NCBI GenBank assembly: GCA_027450205.1
Contig: DAIDJL010000004.1
Location: 139,932 to 203,931, forward strand
Length of the DNA stretch: 64,000 nt
DNA from: Candidatus Parcubacteria bacterium
GTDB lineage: Bacteria > Patescibacteriota > Minisyncoccia > UBA6257 > 2-01-FULL-56-20
Direction of reading: 5' to 3'
Positions 21,666 to 37,995 of the stretch are shown here, piece by piece. Position numbers and translations under genes: made by a program. Positions within the stretch are counted from its first letter, which is position 1; the number at the start of each line of letters is the position of its first letter. Below the pieces are notes generated by a model that was given only the letters and a program-made list of their open reading frames with translations, was not told where the DNA came from and did no database searches.

Positions 21666-21953
21666 TCAAAAATCAAAATCGTCTCGACCATCCACATACA
21701 TAAATGTGTATACCATATGGCCCATTCCTCGGAATATTACAGCCCAAGCAATAACGGCCAAGATTCCCGGGGGGCCTAGTTTGGCGACGGCCACGATAGT
21801 GGTCCAGATGATAGATCCTGCAAAGAGAAAGTTCAGTATCGCCATGAACGACTCGCTTGTATCATCGGAACACGGAATCAGCAGAGAGATTGCCAGCATC
21901 AACGCCGAGATCCCACCACTAACAAAGAACCAATGCCTGAAGCTTTCAACCAT
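21666..21953 (-). CDS. Hypothetical small membrane protein
   Basis: 95 aa, 3 hydrophobic helices. Confidence 0.3.
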   Translation of the reverse strand: MVESFRHWFFVSGGISALMLAISLLIPCSDDTSESFMAILNFLFAGSIIWTTIVAVAKLGPPGILAVIAWAVIFRGMGHMVYTFMYVDGRDDFDF

Positions 21954-24758: not shown

Positions 24759-26714
24759 TTATTGCGTCACCTCGCCATTCTGATTTTTAGCAAATGGATC
24801 GTCCGGCAGCTGCGTAGTAATCGCGTTAGTCGATTGCGATATTGCCGTGCCAGTGTAGGCATCCGTGGCGGTGAGCGTTGCGGGACCCATCAGAGTGATC
24901 TGTTGACCGACCTGATTGACCGCCGGCGTGTTCGTCACCTGGAACACGGCTGTGACCGGGGCGCTGATCACGCCCGCAGTTGCCGGAATATATGGGATGG
25001 TCCACGTGACCTCACCGGTCCCCGCGTTATAGGTAGGCAACGTGGTTGATGTGAGGCCGGTGCTCGTGGCAACACCGGTGAACGTGGTACCGGACTGCAG
25101 GTACGCCGATATCGTAACATTTTGCATGTCGGTGGAGTAGTTCACGAGGCTCCAATGGATTGTGTATGTGGTTGGCTGGTCAACTTTTGGCGGATAGGGG
25201 CCGGTATTTTTTATGCCCACGGCGGTCTCTTTATAGAAGGCATCCGATGTGAGCGCGATTTCGCCGCCCACTTTGCTGGTGAGCGAGGCGACGGAAACGG
25301 TGTCTGTGCCGGCGGTGTTTGGCGGTACGGTCGGCGACTGCGCTTTTGCGAAGACGTTCAGGGAATAATCCTTGTCGCTCGGCAGCTTTATCGGAAACGA
25401 TGATTTTGTATTGATGGTAAAATCCACCGACCCCGACTGCCCGGGCGGGATCGCCGCGAGCGCCGGAGCATTCGCCGTGTTCCACGTAATGGTGTTGGAT
25501 TGCGAATTGAACGAACCGTTCGTTTTGAGCGATTTGAAATCGTACATTCGTCCGACGAGTGCCGCAGAAATGTTCACCGCCTGGAACGTCACATCGGAAT
25601 CATTCGTATAGGTCAATGTGTAGTCAAGGTTGTCTCCCAATCCGGCAACGTATGTGGATGAGTTATTCAGTGCGATCGTGAACGAGAGCGGCGACGGGGT
25701 GATCGCAAAGTTCACCGGCGCGATGTTCGCGGGATAGTTTTGCCCGCCGAAATTTGCGCCGATCACGCCGGTCAGCTGATATTGCGCGCGCGCCGGTCCC
25801 ACGATGTTGCCCGTGACGACGATCGTGCCGGTCGCATTCGCCGGAAGATCACCAAGGTTCCATGTTTTTGTTTTAAGAGTGCCGAGATCCCATATTGTTT
25901 CCGCCGGAGCGGTGCCGCTTACCGAAATGAACGTGTATGCCGGCGGGTATTGCAGTTGCAGGTCAACGCCCTGCATATTTTCACCCGTATTGTTCTGATA
26001 ATTCATTGCGATATCAAAATTCTGCCCGCTGAAGATGTTGGAAGGTACGGTATAGGACACCGTGAGCGCTGCCTGCGTGCCGACAGCAAGCGATGTGTTT
26101 GCGGTGTTGGTGAACTGCGTATCGGGCGAAGCCGCGGTGCTGTACGTAAGGACGGCGTTCGCGGTTTGCGATGTCCCCGGATCCCCCGTCGCGATCAATT
26201 CTATCGTTTGCGGCGGATTGATCGTTTGCGAACTGAGTGTTCCTATCGGGATCATGAGCGCGCGCTGGCCGGGCGTGGTCCCGGTCGCCACAAACGATAT
26301 TCCCGTCGGAAGCGTCAGGGTTAATTGCGTGTTTCGCAGGGCGCTCTTTGATTGGTTGGAGACGGTGACGGTCAGTGGGAATGGCTCTCCCAATACGATC
26401 GTACCGGGATCGGAAAATGTTATGGCGATGTTCGGCGTTGAGGGCGGAAGCAATAAGTAATAAATGAATGCCGCAAGGCCGATTGCCAGAAAAATTCCTA
26501 TGGTAAAGAAGAGGAGGCTATGGCGCTTAAAGAACGACGGCTGTGCGGGCGGTTTATTCCCGGATTTTTCACCCGGCGGGGGCGTGCCGCCCGGCAGTGG
26601 ATCCTGGGCGTCTTGCGGACGCTGTGCGGTATATGAGGTTTTGTCCCCCGGCGGCGTGTAAGCGTATTTCTTTTCTTTGCTCCCCCACACCGAATTCGGA
26701 TTATAATCGGGCAT
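24759..26714 (-). CDS. Large cell-surface protein: Pro-rich cytoplasmic N-terminus, single TM, about 550-aa extracellular Thr/Asn-rich beta-repeat region (DUF11/CARDB-like repeats)
   Basis: Composition and repeat pattern only. Confidence 0.45.
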   Translation of the reverse strand: MPDYNPNSVWGSKEKKYAYTPPGDKTSYTAQRPQDAQDPLPGGTPPPGEKSGNKPPAQPSFFKRHSLLFFTIGIFLAIGLAAFIYYLLLPPSTPNIAITFSDPGTIVLGEPFPLTVTVSNQSKSALRNTQLTLTLPTGISFVATGTTPGQRALMIPIGTLSSQTINPPQTIELIATGDPGTSQTANAVLTYSTAASPDTQFTNTANTSLAVGTQAALTVSYTVPSNIFSGQNFDIAMNYQNNTGENMQGVDLQLQYPPAYTFISVSGTAPAETIWDLGTLKTKTWNLGDLPANATGTIVVTGNIVGPARAQYQLTGVIGANFGGQNYPANIAPVNFAITPSPLSFTIALNNSSTYVAGLGDNLDYTLTYTNDSDVTFQAVNISAALVGRMYDFKSLKTNGSFNSQSNTITWNTANAPALAAIPPGQSGSVDFTINTKSSFPIKLPSDKDYSLNVFAKAQSPTVPPNTAGTDTVSVASLTSKVGGEIALTSDAFYKETAVGIKNTGPYPPKVDQPTTYTIHWSLVNYSTDMQNVTISAYLQSGTTFTGVATSTGLTSTTLPTYNAGTGEVTWTIPYIPATAGVISAPVTAVFQVTNTPAVNQVGQQITLMGPATLTATDAYTGTAISQSTNAITTQLPDDPFAKNQNGEVTQ

Positions 26715-27231
26715 CTATTGATATTACCGCATCCCGCCGCGCTTTTGAAGCGTGCGCGTGGCAATAGAATTCCTGGGTGGTGGTGTAAAAATAACGCGGC
26801 TGTCTTTCGCCGCACGCGGCGCATTCGGCGTGTTCCGGATCCCATCCCAGTATGCCAAGTGATGTGGTCCAGTTGAACGTACTGCCGGTGAGCAGTTCCC
26901 AAAGCGCCGGCTCCGGCTCCGCTTCGGGGATAAGCTGGCTCAGGAGGTGCAGGTCATTCAGTGCGACCTCTATTCGTGCAGATTTAAGCGCATCAATAAG
27001 CTGTATTCCTTTTGCTTCCACGAAACGTATCTTAGAGAGGATCCCAGGCTCAAGGTGCGGCGCGAGCTTGGACGTGATCTTGCGTGAACTGGTAGCGCGT
27101 CCTACGACCTTGCCAAATTGTTTTGTGAACAGCGTGTAGCGGCCATTAAGGTCGCCCGATGGATCCTTCCTGAGCACAATGGCATCGGCCACATATTCCT
27201 GCATGCGCTCATTATAGGAAAATCGGGCCAT
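26701..27231 (-). CDS. recO: RecO-like recombination mediator (short form)
   Basis: N-terminal OB-fold similarity (DAIVLRKDPSGDLNGRYTLFTKQFGKV) and C-terminal CxxC...CxH zinc module; start placed at MARFSY. Confidence 0.55.
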   Translation of the reverse strand: MARFSYNERMQEYVADAIVLRKDPSGDLNGRYTLFTKQFGKVVGRATSSRKITSKLAPHLEPGILSKIRFVEAKGIQLIDALKSARIEVALNDLHLLSQLIPEAEPEPALWELLTGSTFNWTTSLGILGWDPEHAECAACGERQPRYFYTTTQEFYCHAHASKARRDAVISIDARL

Positions 27232-27240
27232 ATCCGATAC

Positions 27241-27268
27241 TTGACAAGTATATATTCTATGATACAAT
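27241..27268 (+). promoter_or_regulatory. Near-consensus sigma70 promoter: TTGACA, 16 nt, TACAAT
   Basis: Read directly from the sequence; it drives the 50-aa ORF downstream. Confidence 0.5.
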
Positions 27269-27298
27269 ATCCGAGTAGGTATCCTGGGAGGATAAAAT

Positions 27299-27451
27299 AT
27301 GGATCAGCTCCTTGTCGTTGTAAATAACTTCATTGCTCAGGTTCCCCGGCCGCTAGGGATCATGGCGCTCCCGTTGGGCATTTTATTGCTTTTCAAGCTC
27401 AACGAAGCTCGCGCCTTCAAAAAGGCGCGGGTGCCGCGCAGAAGGTTTTAA
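27299..27451 (+). CDS. Unlisted 50-aa small hydrophobic protein (MDQLLVVVNNFIAQVPRPLGIMALPLGILLLFKLNEARAFKKARVPRRRF); complete promoter-RBS-ORF-terminator unit
   Basis: GGGAGG RBS 7 nt before the ATG; one TM helix plus basic tail; terminator follows. The ORF is below the 60-aa cutoff of the ORF track. Confidence 0.4.
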   Translation: MDQLLVVVNNFIAQVPRPLGIMALPLGILLLFKLNEARAFKKARVPRRRF

Positions 27452-27476
27452 GCCGCCAAACGACCTCACAACAGAA

Positions 27477-27512
27477 AAGACCTCGTGTCTTGCTGGTGCG
27501 AGGTCTTTTTTA
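27477..27512 (+). terminator. Rho-independent terminator
   Basis: AAAGACCTCG-13 nt loop-CGAGGTCTTTTTT. Confidence 0.7.
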
Positions 27513-27549
27513 ATATATCAATTCGTTGTTGTATACTTCTATTGTAAAT

Positions 27550-27894
27550 ATGAAATTATCCGTAAAAAGAGTATATGACCCATATGCAAAAACCGACGGG
27601 TTTCGTGTGCTTGTGGATCGTCTCTGGCCCAGGGGCGTTACGAAAGCCGCGGCAAAAATAGATCTATGGGATAAGCAAATTCCGCCGTCATCTGAACTTC
27701 GCTCATGGTTTCATGTTAATAGGGAAAAGCGATTTAACAGTTTTATAAATAAATATGATCGCGAACTCAGCAGAGGAAAGGCGGTGGCAAACTTAAAAAA
27801 AATACTTCGCGGCAAGAAAACGGTGACAATCGTCACGGCGGCAAAGGATATTGAGCATTCTCATATCCCTGTGTTATTTAAACACTTGCGTTAA
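27550..27894 (+). CDS. DUF488-family protein
   Basis: MKLSVKRVYDP...DGFRVLVDRLWPRG...KIDLWDKQIPPSSELRSWFH...TIVTAAKDIEHSHIPVL matches the DUF488 consensus. Confidence 0.6.
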   Translation: MKLSVKRVYDPYAKTDGFRVLVDRLWPRGVTKAAAKIDLWDKQIPPSSELRSWFHVNREKRFNSFINKYDRELSRGKAVANLKKILRGKKTVTIVTAAKDIEHSHIPVLFKHLR

Positions 27895-27975
27895 CCGTTC
27901 CATCGGTGTGGAGGATGGGATGATATTGATAAATGCATAAAAAAGCTTTATATTAAGATCCAGAGGAGAAAAACC

Positions 27976-28073
27976 ATGTCTCTAACATCTCGGCAGAGGC
28001 TTTTGCTGGTGACCTTGGTCCTTGCCCTCATTTCAATCCTATTTCGGATGATTTCCCCTCATGCCGCCCCTTA
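27976..28073 (+). CDS. Unlisted 32-aa hydrophobic peptide (MSLTSRQRLLLVTLVLALISILFRMISPHAAP) with its own promoter, RBS and terminator
   Basis: Promoter TTGATA-17-TATATT at about 27925-27953; RBS GAGGAGAAAAACC-ATG; stop overlaps a CCGCCCC-ttaaaaa-GGGCGG hairpin followed by TTTAACTTT. Confidence 0.35.
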
Positions 28074-28083
28074 AAAAGGGCGG

Positions 28084-28123
28084 TTTAACTTTGTGCGGGG
28101 TATCGGACCAGGTTCGAACCTAT
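28084..28123 (-). repeat. Repeat A: degenerate copy of the tRNA-Tyr 3' end (T-loop to acceptor), placed immediately 3' of the SET gene
   Basis: Minus-strand reading AAATAGGTTCGAACCTGGTCCGATACCCCGCACAAAG versus the tRNA-Tyr 3' end AGGTTCGAATCCTGCCCGGCGCA. Confidence 0.5.
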
Positions 28124-28124
28124 T

Positions 28125-28532
28125 TCAGTCGTTGAGATAGGGGTCTGTGCTCATTGCGTCAGCCGCATCGAAGGTCCGATAGTTGATCAATATCTCCTCC
28201 CCTGCTTCGATGTCCCGATTTGCAACCCCGCGTGTCTCTGGCTCGCCGTCAAACGGTACTACGTCGAGATTGTTCTTTGTTGATGAATGGTTCATAAAGC
28301 GTGCATCATCAGCGCAATAAATATATTCCCCGCTGTCCGTCGAAAGATAGGCATATCGGACGATGAGGTCTTTCTGTAACTGATCCCATGTCTCGACTTC
28401 TTTTGGATCAAACGAAAGATCAAACCGGGGATCATATTTCCATACACTCGTTCCTTTGGGAATTTTTTCCGTAGCAAACAATCCGAAACCTTCTATGCTA
28501 CTTTGCTTCACAATTGTTTTAACAACAAGCAT
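28125..28532 (-). CDS. Minimal SET-domain protein (vSET-like putative protein-lysine methyltransferase)
   Basis: EGFGLFA...; RFMNHSSTKNN corresponds to the NHSC pseudoknot motif; EEILINY post-SET-like; 135 aa. Leaderless extended -10 promoter TGaTATAAT 6 nt before the ATG. Confidence 0.6.
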   Translation of the reverse strand: MLVVKTIVKQSSIEGFGLFATEKIPKGTSVWKYDPRFDLSFDPKEVETWDQLQKDLIVRYAYLSTDSGEYIYCADDARFMNHSSTKNNLDVVPFDGEPETRGVANRDIEAGEEILINYRTFDAADAMSTDPYLND

Positions 28533-28579
28533 GTCTGTATTATATCAGACTATTAATTTAATGCGTTGAACGGGATTTG

Positions 28580-28732
28580 TGCGCCGGGCAGGATGGGGCG
28601 GATGGGAATCCGCCCCCGAATTGGTTCGCTCGTCGAAAATGAAAACCCGCCCTTGTCGCTTGCCCGTTTTCATTTTCTCCTCGCTGCCAATTCCCGAACC
28701 CTAAAGGGTTCTTATCCTGCCCACCATACGAG
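28580..28732 (-). ncRNA. R1: structured repeat element (copy 1 of 2). Ends with a 15-nt copy of the tRNA-Tyr 3' end. Strand and function unknown
   Basis: Homologous to R2 over conserved blocks with covarying hairpins (GGGGCGGAT/ATCCGCCCC versus GCGCGT/ACGCGC). Long-range pairing GGGCAGGAT/ATCCTGCCC. Confidence 0.45.
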
Positions 28733-28736
28733 TACT

Positions 28737-28765
28737 AAAACAGGATGCCAATGGCATCCTGTTTT
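28737..28765. terminator. Bidirectional terminator hairpin (AAAACAGGATGCC-aat-GGCATCCTGTTTT)
   Basis: Perfect 9-bp stem flanked by an A-run and a T-run. Confidence 0.65.
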
Positions 28766-28801
28766 AGTATGGTGCGGGACAGCGAACCAAATTCGAACCT
28801 A
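28762..28801 (-). repeat. Repeat B: degenerate tRNA-Tyr 3'-end copy abutting the ASCH gene stop
   Basis: Minus-strand reading AAAATAGGTTCGAATTTGGTTCGCTGTCCCGCACCA. Confidence 0.45.
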
Positions 28802-28803
28802 TT

Positions 28804-29196
28804 TTATAGCCGCTCGACCAGGATAAATTCTTCGCAGATAACCTTAGAATTGTCGTTAAATGAGCCGGAGAAGCCCTTAAAGAACTCTCTATGCTTCTCA
28901 CGCCATGCTTCAACATCTGGATCACCTTCCCCTTCCTTTTGGATAAAATCGTACTCAACCCCTAAAAATGACTTAACTTCGGCAGCAGTGTATTGAATAA
29001 TGCAAAATCGTTTACCGTCGCTGCCGAGGATGGCGGCATATTGCCCCTTCACTGGAATTGTTTTGCCCTCCTGCCACAATCCGGTTGTCGCGGTCTTTTC
29101 CCCGGAAAGCACGAGTTGTTTCAGGTGATCAGCCAATTCTTTATCATCACCGAAGTCCCATTCATATAACTGCATTTTTGACCAATCCTTTTCCAT
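28804..29196 (-). CDS. ASCH (ASC-1 homology, PUA-like) domain protein
   Basis: MQLYEWDFGDDKELADHLKQLVLSGEKTATTGLW: the ASCH-like N-terminal beta-barrel pattern; 130 aa. Confidence 0.5.
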   Translation of the reverse strand: MEKDWSKMQLYEWDFGDDKELADHLKQLVLSGEKTATTGLWQEGKTIPVKGQYAAILGSDGKRFCIIQYTAAEVKSFLGVEYDFIQKEGEGDPDVEAWREKHREFFKGFSGSFNDNSKVICEEFILVERL

Positions 29197-29206
29197 AATT
29201 TTTCAA

Positions 29207-29932
29207 TTATATCTTCTTTAGAAGCGGGCATACAAAACCCATGGCTTCAAATGGGCAATGCTCCTCATTTGGACGCTTGGCGTTTGATGGTTTTGATCCT
29301 CGCCGTAAATTGAGAACGCTACGCGGAGATTGCGCTTTTAGAATTTCGTTCAAATTATAATTGGCTATTACCTTTAATTGCGGATGGAGCTGAAAAAGAA
29401 CGTAATCTTTGCGTTCAGGGTGGGTGCGTCCTAGTCCGACTACCGGACATACCGCCCCAGTATTCTGCAAAGCGCTCGCTATCTCTTCCCATGAATTGAT
29501 CTGAGTTCCTGTTTGAATATGAAGCAGTATGATCGTTTTTGCATCGTAAGATTTTGCTTTAGATAATTTCGTCCTACTTAAAAATTTTCCAATATCCTCA
29601 TTTGGTGCGGGAAGAAATGAAACCACTTCAACATCTTGATATTCCCAGTGAGGAGCGTGCTCTCCCTCGGGCGGTAGAAAATGCCCAGTCCTTACATCCG
29701 GGCTACCTTCCAAATCTGCTACGGGTTGCATCCAATGATCACCTTCTGCGATTTGAATGCCGAGCAAAGCATAAGCTGCTACTAGTAGCTCATCAGCTTT
29801 TTTGAACGCCTTGGTAGTTTTTTGATCCGCAGGCATCGAATCTAAATGCTGGGCGTAATGATAAATGACGCTATGCGGCGCATACCAAATCGGGTCTTTT
29901 AGCCAGTATGCTTTGTCTCTTTCATTATTCAT
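29207..29932 (-). CDS. Hypothetical 241-aa protein, no recognisable motif
   Basis: ORF only. The start codon directly abuts repeat C and has no SD. Confidence 0.45.
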   Translation of the reverse strand: MNNERDKAYWLKDPIWYAPHSVIYHYAQHLDSMPADQKTTKAFKKADELLVAAYALLGIQIAEGDHWMQPVADLEGSPDVRTGHFLPPEGEHAPHWEYQDVEVVSFLPAPNEDIGKFLSRTKLSKAKSYDAKTIILLHIQTGTQINSWEEIASALQNTGAVCPVVGLGRTHPERKDYVLFQLHPQLKVIANYNLNEILKAQSPRSVLNLRRGSKPSNAKRPNEEHCPFEAMGFVCPLLKKI

Positions 29933-29966
29933 AAACTTTGTGCGGAGTATCGGACTATGTTCAAAC
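29927..29966 (-). repeat. Repeat C: degenerate tRNA-Tyr 3'-end copy between the NUDIX-fold gene and the 241-aa gene
   Basis: Minus-strand reading GGAAATAGGTTTGAACATAGTCCGATACTCCGCACAAAG, the closest match to repeat A. Confidence 0.5.
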
Positions 29967-29990
29967 CTATTTCCTTCAATTCTCTATTTC

Positions 29991-30416
29991 TTAATGATAC
30001 AAATCCAAGGCTTTCAGAAGCTTTACGGACGGAGGAACGAGGTCATATTGCGATAACATCGTCGTCGGTATCCAATCAACCCTTTCCGCACCCGTCGGCA
30101 CCCTTGGTTGGCCGCCGATATATTTACATATCAGATTCACATATGTGAACTCTTTTAAAATACCGTCATGATCGTTCTTTATTTCGGAATCCGAAGGTAT
30201 CGCACGATCATTCACTTCAACATCAATACCCAATCCTTCTTTTAGATAGTCTTTTAAGGTTGTTGAGTCTTCTTGTTTTGCCGTTGGCTCACATCCGAAA
30301 AGATACCACGTTTCTTTATACGGAGGAGATCCCGCAGGTTTTTTACGCATTAAAATCGAACCATCTTTTTCGATAACGGCGATCAGCAATTTCTTCTGAG
30401 GGAGATCGGATCTCAT
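29991..30416 (-). CDS. MutT-like NUDIX-fold protein with a degenerate Nudix box (catalytic Glu residues replaced by Lys)
   Basis: Collinear with MutT (LLIAVIEKDGSILMRKK...; C-terminal DLVPPSVKLLKAL). The box reads GCEPTAKQEDSTTLKDYLKEGLGI instead of GX5EX7REUXEEXGU. Confidence 0.45.
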   Translation of the reverse strand: MRSDLPQKKLLIAVIEKDGSILMRKKPAGSPPYKETWYLFGCEPTAKQEDSTTLKDYLKEGLGIDVEVNDRAIPSDSEIKNDHDGILKEFTYVNLICKYIGGQPRVPTGAERVDWIPTTMLSQYDLVPPSVKLLKALDLYH

Positions 30417-30441
30417 ACGATCATTCTACCACCTTTCTTTG

Positions 30442-30574
30442 TGCGCCGGGCAGGATGGCGCGTAAGAACGCGCGAAATTGGTTCGCTCGTCGAAAATGAA
30501 ATTCCCCTATTTCATTTTCTCCTCGCTGCCAATTCCCGAACCCTAAAGGGTTCTTATCCTGCCCACCATACGAG
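30442..30574 (-). ncRNA. R2: structured repeat element (copy 2), directly downstream of tRNA-Tyr. Ends with ATCCTGCCCGGCGCA identical to the tRNA 3' end
   Basis: See R1; the two share conserved blocks GAAATTGGTTCGCTCGTCGAAAATGAAA... and ...CATTTTCTCCTCGCTGCCAATTCCCGAACCCTAAAGGGTTCTTATCCTGCCCACCATACGAG. Confidence 0.45.
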
Positions 30575-30611
30575 CAAACAAAAACGGTACTAATGGTACC
30601 GTTTTTGTTTG
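30575..30611. terminator. Bidirectional terminator hairpin between tRNA-Tyr and R2
   Basis: CAAACAAAAACGGTAC-taatg-GTACCGTTTTTGTTTG. Confidence 0.65.
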
Positions 30612-30614
30612 TAG

Positions 30615-30698
30615 TGCGCCGGGCAGGATTCGAACCTGCGTAGCCCATAGGGCGACAGATTTACAGTCTGTTGCGATTGACCACTCCGCCACCGACGC
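30615..30698 (-). tRNA. tRNA-Tyr (anticodon GTA), class II long variable arm, CCA not encoded
   Basis: GCGTCGGTGGCGGAGTGGTCAATCGCAACAGACTGTAAATCTGTCGCCCTATGGGCTACGCAGGTTCGAATCCTGCCCGGCGCA. The acceptor pairs 7/7 (one G-U) and the T-loop is GGTTCGAATCC. Confidence 0.85.
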
Positions 30699-36321: not shown

Positions 36322-36831
36322 TTAGCGCCGTCTAAGTTGCAAGACGCCGACGGTCGAAGTTATCTTCGAGTCATCATTTTCAAAGCTCAATTCGTCCGTC
36401 GCCGCCCAACCATGGGGAGACATGTTTTGGCTAATTCTTGCAGCGATAAAGCTGGCTGCATCGGCTTTTGACATCCCTTCAGGGAGTTCGAACTTTGTTA
36501 ATTCGGTGTTGAATGTTACGTCCCCCGATTCCGATTTTCCTACGCCGACGACCTTAAACTCATGCGGCAATAGATCTGGACAAACGTGAAAACTCAATTG
36601 CTGAATTTTTTCAGAATTCTGTCGAGCGTGGTCAAAATTCCAGAAGAGTGTGTCGAGGGTTCGTGCGATACATTGTTCAAGTTTAATGAGATCCACAAAC
36701 CCAAGCGCTAAAATTCTCATATTTCCTCCATGCGTCCCATGATGGGAAACGTCTCCTTGTGGAGAAACGTGGATTGAACTGGACGAATCCAGAACTGGTA
36801 ACAATATATCATAAATTTGAGAATTTTGCAA
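36322..36831 (-). CDS. Hypothetical protein
   Basis: ORF only; no motif recognised. Confidence 0.35.
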   Translation of the reverse strand: MQNSQIYDILLPVLDSSSSIHVSPQGDVSHHGTHGGNMRILALGFVDLIKLEQCIARTLDTLFWNFDHARQNSEKIQQLSFHVCPDLLPHEFKVVGVGKSESGDVTFNTELTKFELPEGMSKADAASFIAARISQNMSPHGWAATDELSFENDDSKITSTVGVLQLRRR

Positions 36832-36852: not shown

Positions 36853-37995
36853 ATGGCACAAGCGCTCTATCGTAAATATCGGCCGCAGAAGCTGGACGAC
36901 GTACTCGGCCAGGAGACGAACGTCGAGATCCTCAAGAACGCCGCGAAGGCGGGGCGGCTCGGGCAAGCTTATATTTTTTATGGTGCGCGGGGCACGGGCA
37001 AGACGACGACGGCGCGGCTGATCGCAAAGCTGCTCAACTGCGAGAAGCGCCGCGATGATCCGGAATTTGCCAAGCTCGGCGAGCCGTGCAACGAGTGCCG
37101 CGAATGCCTGGCGATCGACGCGCAGAACTCGTTCGACGTGGTTGAGATCGACGCGGCGTCCAATCGCGGCATCGATGAGATCCGCAACCTTAAGGAAAAT
37201 ATTCGTACCTCCCCCGCCAGCGCCGATCACAAAGTTTATATTATAGACGAAGCTCATATGCTTACCGGCGCGGCGTTCAACGCGCTGCTCAAGACGCTCG
37301 AGGAGCCGCCAAAGCACGCGGCGATCATTCTGGCGACGACCGAATTCGAGAAATTGCCGTCGACGATCACCTCGCGTGCGCAACGGTTCATATTCAAAAA
37401 ATTGCCGAAGGCGACGATCATGGAAAAGCTGACGTCCATCGCGGCGAAGGAAAAAATAAAAATTGATGAGGCGGCGATCGAGCTCATTGCGGCGGCGGCA
37501 GAAGGAAGCTTTCGCGATGCGGAGTCGTTGCTGGACCAGATCTCGTCGCTTGAAGGAGCGGGTACGGACGATGGCAAAGATGGCGCGAAGTCAAAGGGCA
37601 TTTCCCTCGCCGACGCGGAGCGCGTTACCGGCCGCACCGGACTCAAAAAAGTGCATGAATTTGCCGATCTTATTGTTAAAAAAGATATAAAAGACGCACT
37701 TGGTTATTTGAACGAGCTGAATGAAGACGGCCACAACCTCGTGCAATTTAATAAAGATTTAATACATTATTTACGCAAAGTGCTGTCGCTCAAAGTAAAT
37801 CCTTCGCTCAAGGCGGTCATGGAACGCGACCTTACGCGCGATGAGGTAGCCGCAGCCATCGCGCTGGGCGTTGCCGCCGACATCGCTGTTCTTGTTAAAA
37901 TGATCAAAGCGCTCATCCGCGCGTACGCGGAGATGCGCTATTCCCCGTTTGCCATTGTTCCGCTCGAAGTGGCGCTCGTTGAGAACCTCTCATGA
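36853..37995 (+). CDS. dnaX: DNA polymerase III subunit gamma/tau (short, gamma-like)
   Basis: Walker A GARGTGKTT; Zn module CNECRECLAI; SRAQRF sensor 2. Confidence 0.85.
   Translation: MAQALYRKYRPQKLDDVLGQETNVEILKNAAKAGRLGQAYIFYGARGTGKTTTARLIAKLLNCEKRRDDPEFAKLGEPCNECRECLAIDAQNSFDVVEIDAASNRGIDEIRNLKENIRTSPASADHKVYIIDEAHMLTGAAFNALLKTLEEPPKHAAIILATTEFEKLPSTITSRAQRFIFKKLPKATIMEKLTSIAAKEKIKIDEAAIELIAAAAEGSFRDAESLLDQISSLEGAGTDDGKDGAKSKGISLADAERVTGRTGLKKVHEFADLIVKKDIKDALGYLNELNEDGHNLVQFNKDLIHYLRKVLSLKVNPSLKAVMERDLTRDEVAAAIALGVAADIAVLVKMIKALIRAYAEMRYSPFAIVPLEVALVENLS

Follow-up and report, generated by a model that had tools for sequence, protein, structure and literature searches.

What a compact transcription unit beside the recO gene of an uncultured bacterium encodes, and whether its 50-codon open reading frame (ORF) is translated at all, is the question raised by a 64,000-nucleotide (nt) stretch of Candidatus Parcubacteria bacterium DNA (contig DAIDJL010000004.1, positions 139,932 to 203,931), hereafter the window. 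The predicted product of the unit is a small hydrophobic peptide with a basic tail. An earlier sequence-only reading had likened it to type I toxins, phage holins, and membrane-depolarizing peptides at an island boundary. Comparison with a related strain indicates with high confidence that the ORF is a translated gene under purifying selection. As to its function, the explanation to which we incline, with modest confidence, is a monocistronic gene for a lineage-specific, abundant, and non-lethal small membrane protein. The unit consists of the following features:

27241–27268, + strand: sigma-70-type promoter, with the −35 box TTGACA at 27241–27246, a 16-nt spacer, and the −10 box TACAAT at 27263–27268
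27237–27251, no strand assigned: perfect 7+7 palindrome ATACTTG-A-CAAGTAT, centered on the −35 box
27275–27298, + strand: predicted 5′ untranslated region (5′UTR), about 24 nt long and carrying the Shine-Dalgarno sequence GGGAGG (27286–27291) 7 nt before the ATG at 27299
27299–27451, + strand: ORF of 50 codons followed by a TAA stop (27449–27451), with the product MDQLLVVVNNFIAQVPRPLGIMALPLGILLLFKLNEARAFKKARVPRRRF
27458–27511, + strand: intrinsic terminator, with arms at 27475–27485 and 27499–27509, then the T6 tract at 27506–27511

The promoter TTGACA-16-TACAAT, the GGGAGG ribosome-binding site, the 50-codon ORF, and the terminator had all been named in the sequence-only reading, and each was found where it had been placed. 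The terminator had been credited with a 10-bp stem; the hairpin is indeed strong, and 11 perfect pairs were counted in it.

Evidence for translation comes from L001, a 5.4-kb contig of the only other strain with the gene. A GlyRS-like gene, the gene for a 651-amino-acid (aa) DUF11 protein, recO, and the peptide gene follow one another in L001 as they do in the window, and the two sequences share 93.3% DNA identity across 5,194 nt. The L001 peptide (P0001) is 98% identical to the window peptide, the sole aa change being K33R. Within the ORF, 12 substitutions separate the two copies, of which 11 are synonymous third-position changes and one is the conservative exchange of K for R. When the same 12 substitutions were placed at random, at least 11 were synonymous in 3 of 100,000 trials (P ~ 3e-5). 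Each of the remaining five frames contains stops or mostly, in some cases almost only, non-synonymous changes, and the antisense frame that shares its third positions with the ORF contains two stops. The ratio of non-synonymous to synonymous substitution rates (dN/dS; Nei-Gojobori method), measured for the peptide ORF on this one strain pair, is 0.024, which is lower than the ratios of the neighboring genes in the same pair (0.104 for recO, 0.111 for the DUF11 protein gene, and 0.065 for the GlyRS-like gene).

The expression signals are selectively kept in L001 as well. The −35 box is identical, the −10 box reads TAGAAT and so keeps the TA...T pattern, and the block that contains the ribosome-binding site (27279–27295) is unchanged, whereas five of the nine nt between that block and the −10 box (27270–27278) differ. 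The stem of the terminator is preserved through G-C/G-U exchanges. It is the substitution pattern, the dN/dS ratio, and this selective retention of signals that together point to a translated gene under purifying selection. The earlier judgment that the unit is too well formed to be noise is borne out by the joint occurrence of the signals and by their selective conservation in L001. The same reading had held that a lack of aa-level conservation in homologous loci would count against a gene, and the homologous locus gave 98% identity, with 11 synonymous changes against one conservative replacement.

The gene has a very narrow distribution. Two exhaustive protein searches, one querying 5.8 billion clusters by word index and the other reading 1.84 billion representatives in full with HMMER, both returned P0001 as the only homologue. 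A total of 136 related loci was gathered through RecO alignment, the RecO relatives being annotated as Candidatus Paceibacterota, Minisyncoccia, or Patescibacteria, and tblastn and blastn searches of these loci found no relative of the peptide apart from that in L001/L057. This was also the outcome for the tblastn survey of related bins that had been put forward earlier. Peat, bog, and soil metagenomes are the main source of the relatives, among them those behind GCA_009712145.1 and JGI Ga0182030 / Ga0181520. The gene is single-copy, as no paralogue was found within the window. Pfam, NCBIfam, PADLOC, and PHROGs gave no match to the peptide even at permissive E-values, a sequence search of the PDB and a Foldseek search against the PDB gave nothing, and viral contigs, phage records, and plasmids gave only chance-level matches. 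By these searches, the peptide is taken to be an orphan confined to two closely related Paceibacteria strains.

The promoter is near-consensus, scoring 11/12, and carries an extended −10 TG at 27260–27261 inside its spacer (TTGACA-16-TGaTACAAT). On both strands of the window, three sites scoring at least 11/12 were seen, compared with 0.3 expected under a first-order Markov model, and the peptide-gene promoter is the sole one of the three with the extended −10 TG. The other two matches are at 36817 (+) and 63122 (+), the former just upstream of a 380-aa ORF (36853–37995). The palindrome centered on the −35 box is a possible operator, though it is weakly conserved: L001 and L082, another of the related loci, each show a single mismatch. 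An 8-nt direct repeat, ATATCCGA, flanks the promoter at 27230–27237 and 27267–27274; it is probably due to chance, since its second copy is not kept in L001.

Downstream of the promoter, the 5′UTR folds at −7.8 kcal/mol (z = +1.33), and 187 of 200 shuffled sequences are equally or more stable. Its centroid structure, at −3.7 kcal/mol, is not unusual, and a weak 5-bp hairpin (UAUCC/GGAUA) covers part of the Shine-Dalgarno sequence. Because the 5′UTR is short and no more structured than its shuffles, the Shine-Dalgarno sequence would be essentially open. The terminator folds at −20.6 kcal/mol (z = −3.24), which none of 200 shuffles matched, and its stem of 11 perfect pairs extends to 17 when A-U pairs are added. 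The 3′ arm can also pair with 27458–27477 to give an alternative hairpin. This choice of two 5′ partners comes from a direct repeat, AAACGACCTC / AAAAGACCTC (27458–27484), and a single T-tract ends both structures. Given the A-tract upstream, the terminator is potentially bidirectional. A scan against Rfam found no family at its gathering threshold in this region; sub-threshold matches to leaders and small RNAs overlie the terminator, the best leader-type score being 23.7 bits against a threshold of 55.

The 50-aa product is strongly hydrophobic at 56% of its residues. Its charge is unevenly distributed, with residues 1–18 netting zero and residues 33–50 carrying +7. A single-sequence AlphaFold2 model places helices at residues 2–13 and 17–43, with a predicted local distance difference test score (pLDDT) of 74.5 and a predicted template modeling score (pTM) of 0.34. 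The hydrophobic core, P18 to F32, spans about 15 residues and includes two prolines and two glycines; over stretches of 19 residues the Kyte-Doolittle mean peaks at 1.61, and a crude summation of Hessa values comes to +5.9 kcal/mol. Since the core is this short, contains two prolines, and is low in hydropathy, a classical membrane-spanning helix is marginal, and it is just as likely that the segment spans the membrane in a short or kinked form or lies at the interface as a hairpin. Thus, of the earlier description of one transmembrane helix followed by a basic tail, the tail stands as described and the helix becomes marginal. Within the core (residues 18–31; 27350–27391), a heptad near-repeat, PLGIMAL / PLGILLL, sets the glycines seven residues apart; it may have come from a small duplication within the gene or may form a face for helix packing.

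Under the favored explanation, transcription would start at about 27275 from the near-consensus sigma-70 promoter with its extended −10 element, and translation would proceed efficiently from the unstructured 5′UTR of about 24 nt with its optimally spaced GGGAGG. The transcript would end at about 27511, at the hairpin and T-tract that lie exactly at the junction of the conserved backbone and the tRNA-Tyr-associated variable region. The product would join the cytoplasmic membrane through two short hydrophobic helices (residues 2–15 and 18–34), and the tail (residues 33–50, +7) would be kept cytoplasmic by the positive-inside rule, probably lying against anionic lipid headgroups. Abundant, unrepressed synthesis is predicted because of the strong promoter, the open 5′UTR, and the optimal Shine-Dalgarno sequence. 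As unrepressed high expression is hard to square with a lethal toxin, a non-lethal small membrane protein is favored, and its role may be that of an accessory to or modulator of an envelope function rather than that of a repressed toxin.

The same position beside recO is also occupied in other lineages, the promoter being fixed there in no fewer than three lineages of Paceibacteria. The −35 box starts at nt 37 from the recO start in the window, L001, L082, and L008, and the promoter regions align across the lineages that have this slot. In L082, whose RecO is 73% identical to that of the window, and in L008 (64%), the promoter at nt 37 is a perfect 12/12 match, TTGACA-N16/18-TGnTATAAT:

L082, 3961–3988, − strand: promoter scoring 12/12, with an extended −10 TG, driving a 57-aa ORF
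L008, 3947–3976, − strand: promoter scoring 12/12, with an extended −10 TG, driving an 81-aa ORF

In both loci an AGGAGG-type Shine-Dalgarno sequence follows and then the hydrophobic ORF, with 15-residue Kyte-Doolittle means of 2.9 (57 aa) and 2.4 (81 aa). Hydrophobic ORFs divergent from recO and preceded by strong Shine-Dalgarno sequences are also present in L006/L067 (58 aa) and in L003/L061 (88 aa, 67% identical to each other). The proteins at the slot position in L082, L008, L006, and L003 have 15-residue Kyte-Doolittle means of 2.4–3.2 and unambiguous membrane-type segments. When ORFs were selected by strict criteria (a six-base Shine-Dalgarno match, a length of 25–120 aa, and a 15-residue hydropathy of at least 2.2), 35 related loci, with 416 kb of strand sequence between them, yielded seven, five of which are at the recO-side slot. 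The window holds two such ORFs, one being the peptide gene; the other is a 95-aa ORF at 21666–21953 (−). In L085, a 12/12 promoter at position 74 is followed by an 81-aa ORF that is non-hydrophobic.

The occupants themselves resist comparison. DNA alignment of the slot ORFs was no better than that of shuffled controls, and the window and L082 peptides align with a Smith-Waterman score of 32 (shuffle P ~ 0.01–0.03 before correction for four comparisons), which is suggestive of similarity. Because the L082 peptide is itself an orphan, no family profile links it to the window peptide, and because the L082 ORF region is identical in all 15 contigs that carry it, a test of selection there is uninformative. 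These comparisons indicate a conserved strong promoter slot whose occupant evolves very fast or is replaced, which would leave each lineage with its own orphan. More tentatively, the fixed consensus promoter beside recO may, in a clade of Paceibacteria, be an expression slot in which occupants diverge beyond recognition or are repeatedly born or replaced, each lineage (window/L001, L082, L008, and perhaps L006 and L003/L061) holding its own; this is a possibility to be entertained rather than one to be relied upon. If true, it would provide a natural series on the origin and turnover of small membrane proteins in bacteria with minimal genomes, and, given confirmation at the transcript level, a tractable example of such proteins evolving very rapidly or being born repeatedly.

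Several points weigh against the small membrane protein favored here. The membrane-spanning prediction is marginal and the crude insertion energy is positive, so the protein could be soluble or peripheral. The estimate of selection comes from a single pair of strains. The DNA of the slot occupants is unalignable and the resemblance between the window and L082 peptides is no more than suggestive, so their orthology is at most a possibility, and many related lineages do not have the slot at all. Expression and membrane localization are predictions, and a non-toxic accessory protein would be argued from missing repression features rather than from positive evidence.

Three neighboring features make up the surroundings of the gene:

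26701–27204, − strand: recO (Pfam RecO_N and RecO_C), divergent from the peptide gene
27512–30613, no strand assigned: low-GC variable region with genes for DUF488, SET, ASCH, 241-aa, and 141-aa proteins and with two copies of the tRNA-Tyr 3′-end resembling attachment (att) sites
30614–30698, − strand: intact tRNA-Tyr (GTA), probable target of integration, by which the hotspot is defined

RecO had been called as a 176-aa protein starting at 27231. However, the codon aligned to M10 of this call is ATG in nearly all relatives, in which RecO is called as 167 aa, and the true start is therefore most likely the ATG at 27204–27202 (MQEY...). On the recO strand, a TATAAT at 27216–27211 ends 6 nt before this ATG, and TCATTATA is conserved in seven sequences, which suggests a leaderless recO mRNA. 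With the TATAAT this near to 27204, the recO promoter does not reach into the peptide ORF. Antisense transcription of the peptide gene from the recO promoter was considered and rejected, given this conserved TATAAT right at the recO start. A distance of 94 nt separates the peptide ATG from the start of recO, and one of 99 nt separates the peptide stop from the ATG of the DUF488 gene (27550). A −10-like TATACT lies a short way upstream of the DUF488 gene, which has no Shine-Dalgarno sequence.

On the other side, homology between the window and L001 stops at 27511, the last T of the peptide-gene terminator. The GC content is 40–47% over the 3.1 kb downstream of the peptide gene, compared with 54–58% on the recO side, and this low-GC block is absent from L001 directly after the terminator. 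Within the block, the last ~16–17 nt of tRNA-Tyr (ATCCTGCCCGGCGCAC) recur at 28579–28625 and 30441–30468, each time after a GC-rich hairpin. One such fragment is present in L001 (5263–5307), 68 nt past the terminator, and the repeat recurs downstream of tRNA-Tyr in L059, L082, L011, L091, L019, and L013. These copies resemble remnants of att sites left by integrations targeted to the tRNA; the stretch 27512–30613 contains no integrase gene. In relatives, tRNA-Tyr lies upstream of recO at a variable distance and with different cargo, and backbone synteny with the L082 lineage holds on both sides, the 109-aa gene beyond tRNA-Tyr being 85% identical. The peptide gene can thus be assigned to the backbone (core) side of a tRNA-Tyr integration hotspot. 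The earlier placement at an island boundary is upheld, because homology stops at the terminator's final T and the DNA beyond it is low in GC and carries tRNA-Tyr 3′-end repeats.

Some further observations concern the variable region and the end of the L001 contig. A 141-aa ORF at 29991–30416 (−) matches the PADLOC candidate defense family PDC-S07 (E = 9e-8), and the 241-aa ORF beside it has a very weak CARF-like match (E = 0.04). The last part of L001 (5310–5398) consists of poly-C/poly-G sequence of low complexity, within which an inverted match occurs, and is probably an assembly artifact. A tRNA in the L001 tail was looked for with ARAGORN and none was found, the tail consisting of the tRNA-Tyr 3′-end fragment and the low-complexity poly-C/G sequence.

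Of the rival explanations, the type I toxin had been the one put forward in the sequence-only reading. A toxin of this kind would depolarize its own cell's membrane and be silenced by an undetected antisense or trans-acting small RNA, forming an addiction or stress module at the island edge. The general description of such toxins fits a 50-aa peptide with a hydrophobic segment and then a charged C-terminus ending in F (PMC2887945), and the gene adjoins a tRNA integration hotspot and, like many type I toxins, is an orphan with a narrow range. A weak promoter-like site on the − strand (27324–27296) and a − strand hairpin with a T-run (27439–27425) are also present. However, that site scores 9/12 and is degraded in L001, where both hexamers are changed (TTTACA to TTCACA and CATATT to CATATC, the key final T being lost). 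It is the single site that emerged when an antisense small RNA over the 5′ end, a check proposed with the toxin reading, was looked for by sequence scan. No further − strand promoter was detected in 27232–27560, a scan that an unconventional promoter could escape, and no Rfam small RNA was found. The short, open 5′UTR and the near-consensus promoter are the opposite of the tight translational repression in known type I systems. Searches for type I loci have required spacing of at least 400 nt upstream and at least 250 nt downstream and/or tandem repeats (PMC2887945), compared with 94 and 99 nt here and no tandem copies or window paralogue. No toxin family in Pfam, NCBIfam, or PADLOC matches the peptide, and its hydrophobic core is short and proline-rich. 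The toxin label had been drawn from size and composition, and with neither a credible antisense promoter, a structured 5′UTR, the spacing, the repeats, nor a family behind it, a type I toxin is rather unlikely; composition alone is a poor basis for such a call. The likeness to holins and membrane-depolarizing peptides fares no better, as it too was one of size and composition, with no lysis genes nearby and no phage family match. A holin or phage lysis peptide, which would be expected in a lysis cassette or prophage beside an endolysin, is not supported, the neighbors being recO, DUF488, SET, and ASCH genes, with no phage families and no viral, phage, or plasmid match.

A soluble product is also unlikely. 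In this case, the peptide would be a small helical hairpin whose hydrophobic faces oligomerize and whose polybasic tail binds nucleic acid or the ribosome. The two AlphaFold2 helices could pack together, the membrane-spanning scores are marginal with two prolines in the core, the tail KKARVPRRRF is strongly positive, and a DNA-repair gene lies next door. Yet more than half of the residues are strongly hydrophobic and few polar positions are left on either helix, the slot proteins of L082, L008, L006, and L003 have clear membrane-type segments, the PDB searches found no sequence or structure match to a DNA- or RNA-binding fold, and the model itself comes from a single sequence, with a pTM of 0.34. 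Leaderless class II bacteriocins share small size, helicity, positive charge, the lack of a signal peptide, and strong expression signals. The peptide could accordingly be pictured as an exported, leaderless, cationic, membrane-active product, bacteriocin-like or host-directed, of an episymbiotic Paceibacteria cell, since it is about 50 aa long, helical, at about +7, free of a signal peptide, and preceded by very strong expression signals; an arms race would also be in keeping with the rapid turnover from lineage to lineage. This is very unlikely, however, as there is no adjacent transporter, immunity, or modification gene, the L001 copy stands alone between recO and the tRNA fragment, the charge is clustered in the tail rather than spread amphipathically, and no bacteriocin family shows homology. 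A role at the level of RNA or transcription is more doubtful still. The locus would then make a small RNA, or its promoter and terminator would insulate recO from transcription of tRNA-Tyr and the island, with the ORF incidental or a leader for DUF488. The position of the promoter is conserved across lineages and the ORF is not, the potentially bidirectional terminator is exactly at the boundary, and weak leader-like Rfam matches lie over it. Against this, 11 of 12 changes falling in third positions of one frame and so low a dN/dS ratio are not what a non-coding RNA would be expected to show, every slot lineage retains a consensus Shine-Dalgarno sequence, and the Rfam scores are far below their gathering thresholds. 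There is no antiterminator, because both alternative hairpins share the 3′ arm and the T-tract, and no regulatable gene follows in L001. An attenuator switch through the repeated GACCTC or a leader peptide was rejected, as both hairpins terminate and no gene follows in L001. Finally, that the ORF is spurious and its signals arose by chance is scarcely credible. It is short, has one near-identical homologue only, and belongs to the hydrophobic kind of ORF, which chance easily produces, but a promoter, Shine-Dalgarno sequence, ORF, and terminator occurring together, selectively conserved in L001 and with synonymous-biased substitutions, argue strongly for a gene. The small, non-lethal membrane protein thus continues to be preferred to these alternatives.

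Compared with known systems, phage holins and single-gene lysis peptides resemble the peptide in small size, a hydrophobic segment, and a highly basic C-terminus. In contrast to genes for such peptides, the peptide gene has no endolysin, spanin, or other phage gene nearby, its product has no PHROG match, and it is on the backbone side of the boundary. De novo or fast-evolving small membrane proteins can arise from T-rich sequence, a concept that comes from yeast proto-genes. The peptide is like these in its orphan status, its hydrophobic helical character, and the fixed promoter platform that carries a lineage-specific ORF. No non-coding ancestral state was found, so de novo birth would be one possibility among others; an old gene that has diverged past recognition, or one brought in by integration in place of another, accounts for the data just as well. 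Type I toxins (Hok, Ldr/Fst, TisB, Ibs, ShoB, TxpA, BsrG, and ZorO) are similar in being shorter than 70 aa, in having a hydrophobic segment with a polar or charged C-terminus, in their narrow taxonomic range, and in their nearness to mobile or variable DNA (PMC2887945; PMC8309996). Unlike their genes, the peptide gene has no detectable antitoxin RNA gene, no long structured 5′UTR or hidden Shine-Dalgarno sequence, no tandem copies, and no family match, and it has near-consensus signals and tight packing between its neighbors.

The peptide can further be compared with small membrane proteins of up to 50 aa, such as AcrZ, MgrB, KdpF, CydX, and MgtS; those of Gram-positive bacteria have been reviewed (PMC10730256). 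The peptide differs from AcrZ, MgrB, KdpF, CydX, and MgtS in having no sequence relationship to them and no partner complex that can be identified from its neighborhood. Its core is shorter than that of known small membrane proteins and contains prolines, and its host is an uncultured member of Paceibacteria, within the candidate phyla radiation (CPR). It agrees with them in size, in a single short hydrophobic region with a charged flank, in a gene that stands alone and has a promoter, Shine-Dalgarno sequence, and terminator to itself, in its omission from tracks of longer ORFs, and in poor conservation beyond close relatives. The peptide is thus a new orphan among the small hydrophobic proteins of bacteria, a broad class. 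Taken alone, the gene would not surprise a specialist; its value is that of a well-supported small-protein gene, with coding selection shown, in CPR/Patescibacteria, a group whose small proteins have hardly been studied. Of greater use is a by-product, the conserved recO-side promoter with lineage-specific orphan hydrophobic ORFs at the edge of a tRNA-Tyr hotspot, which raises the find above the routine.

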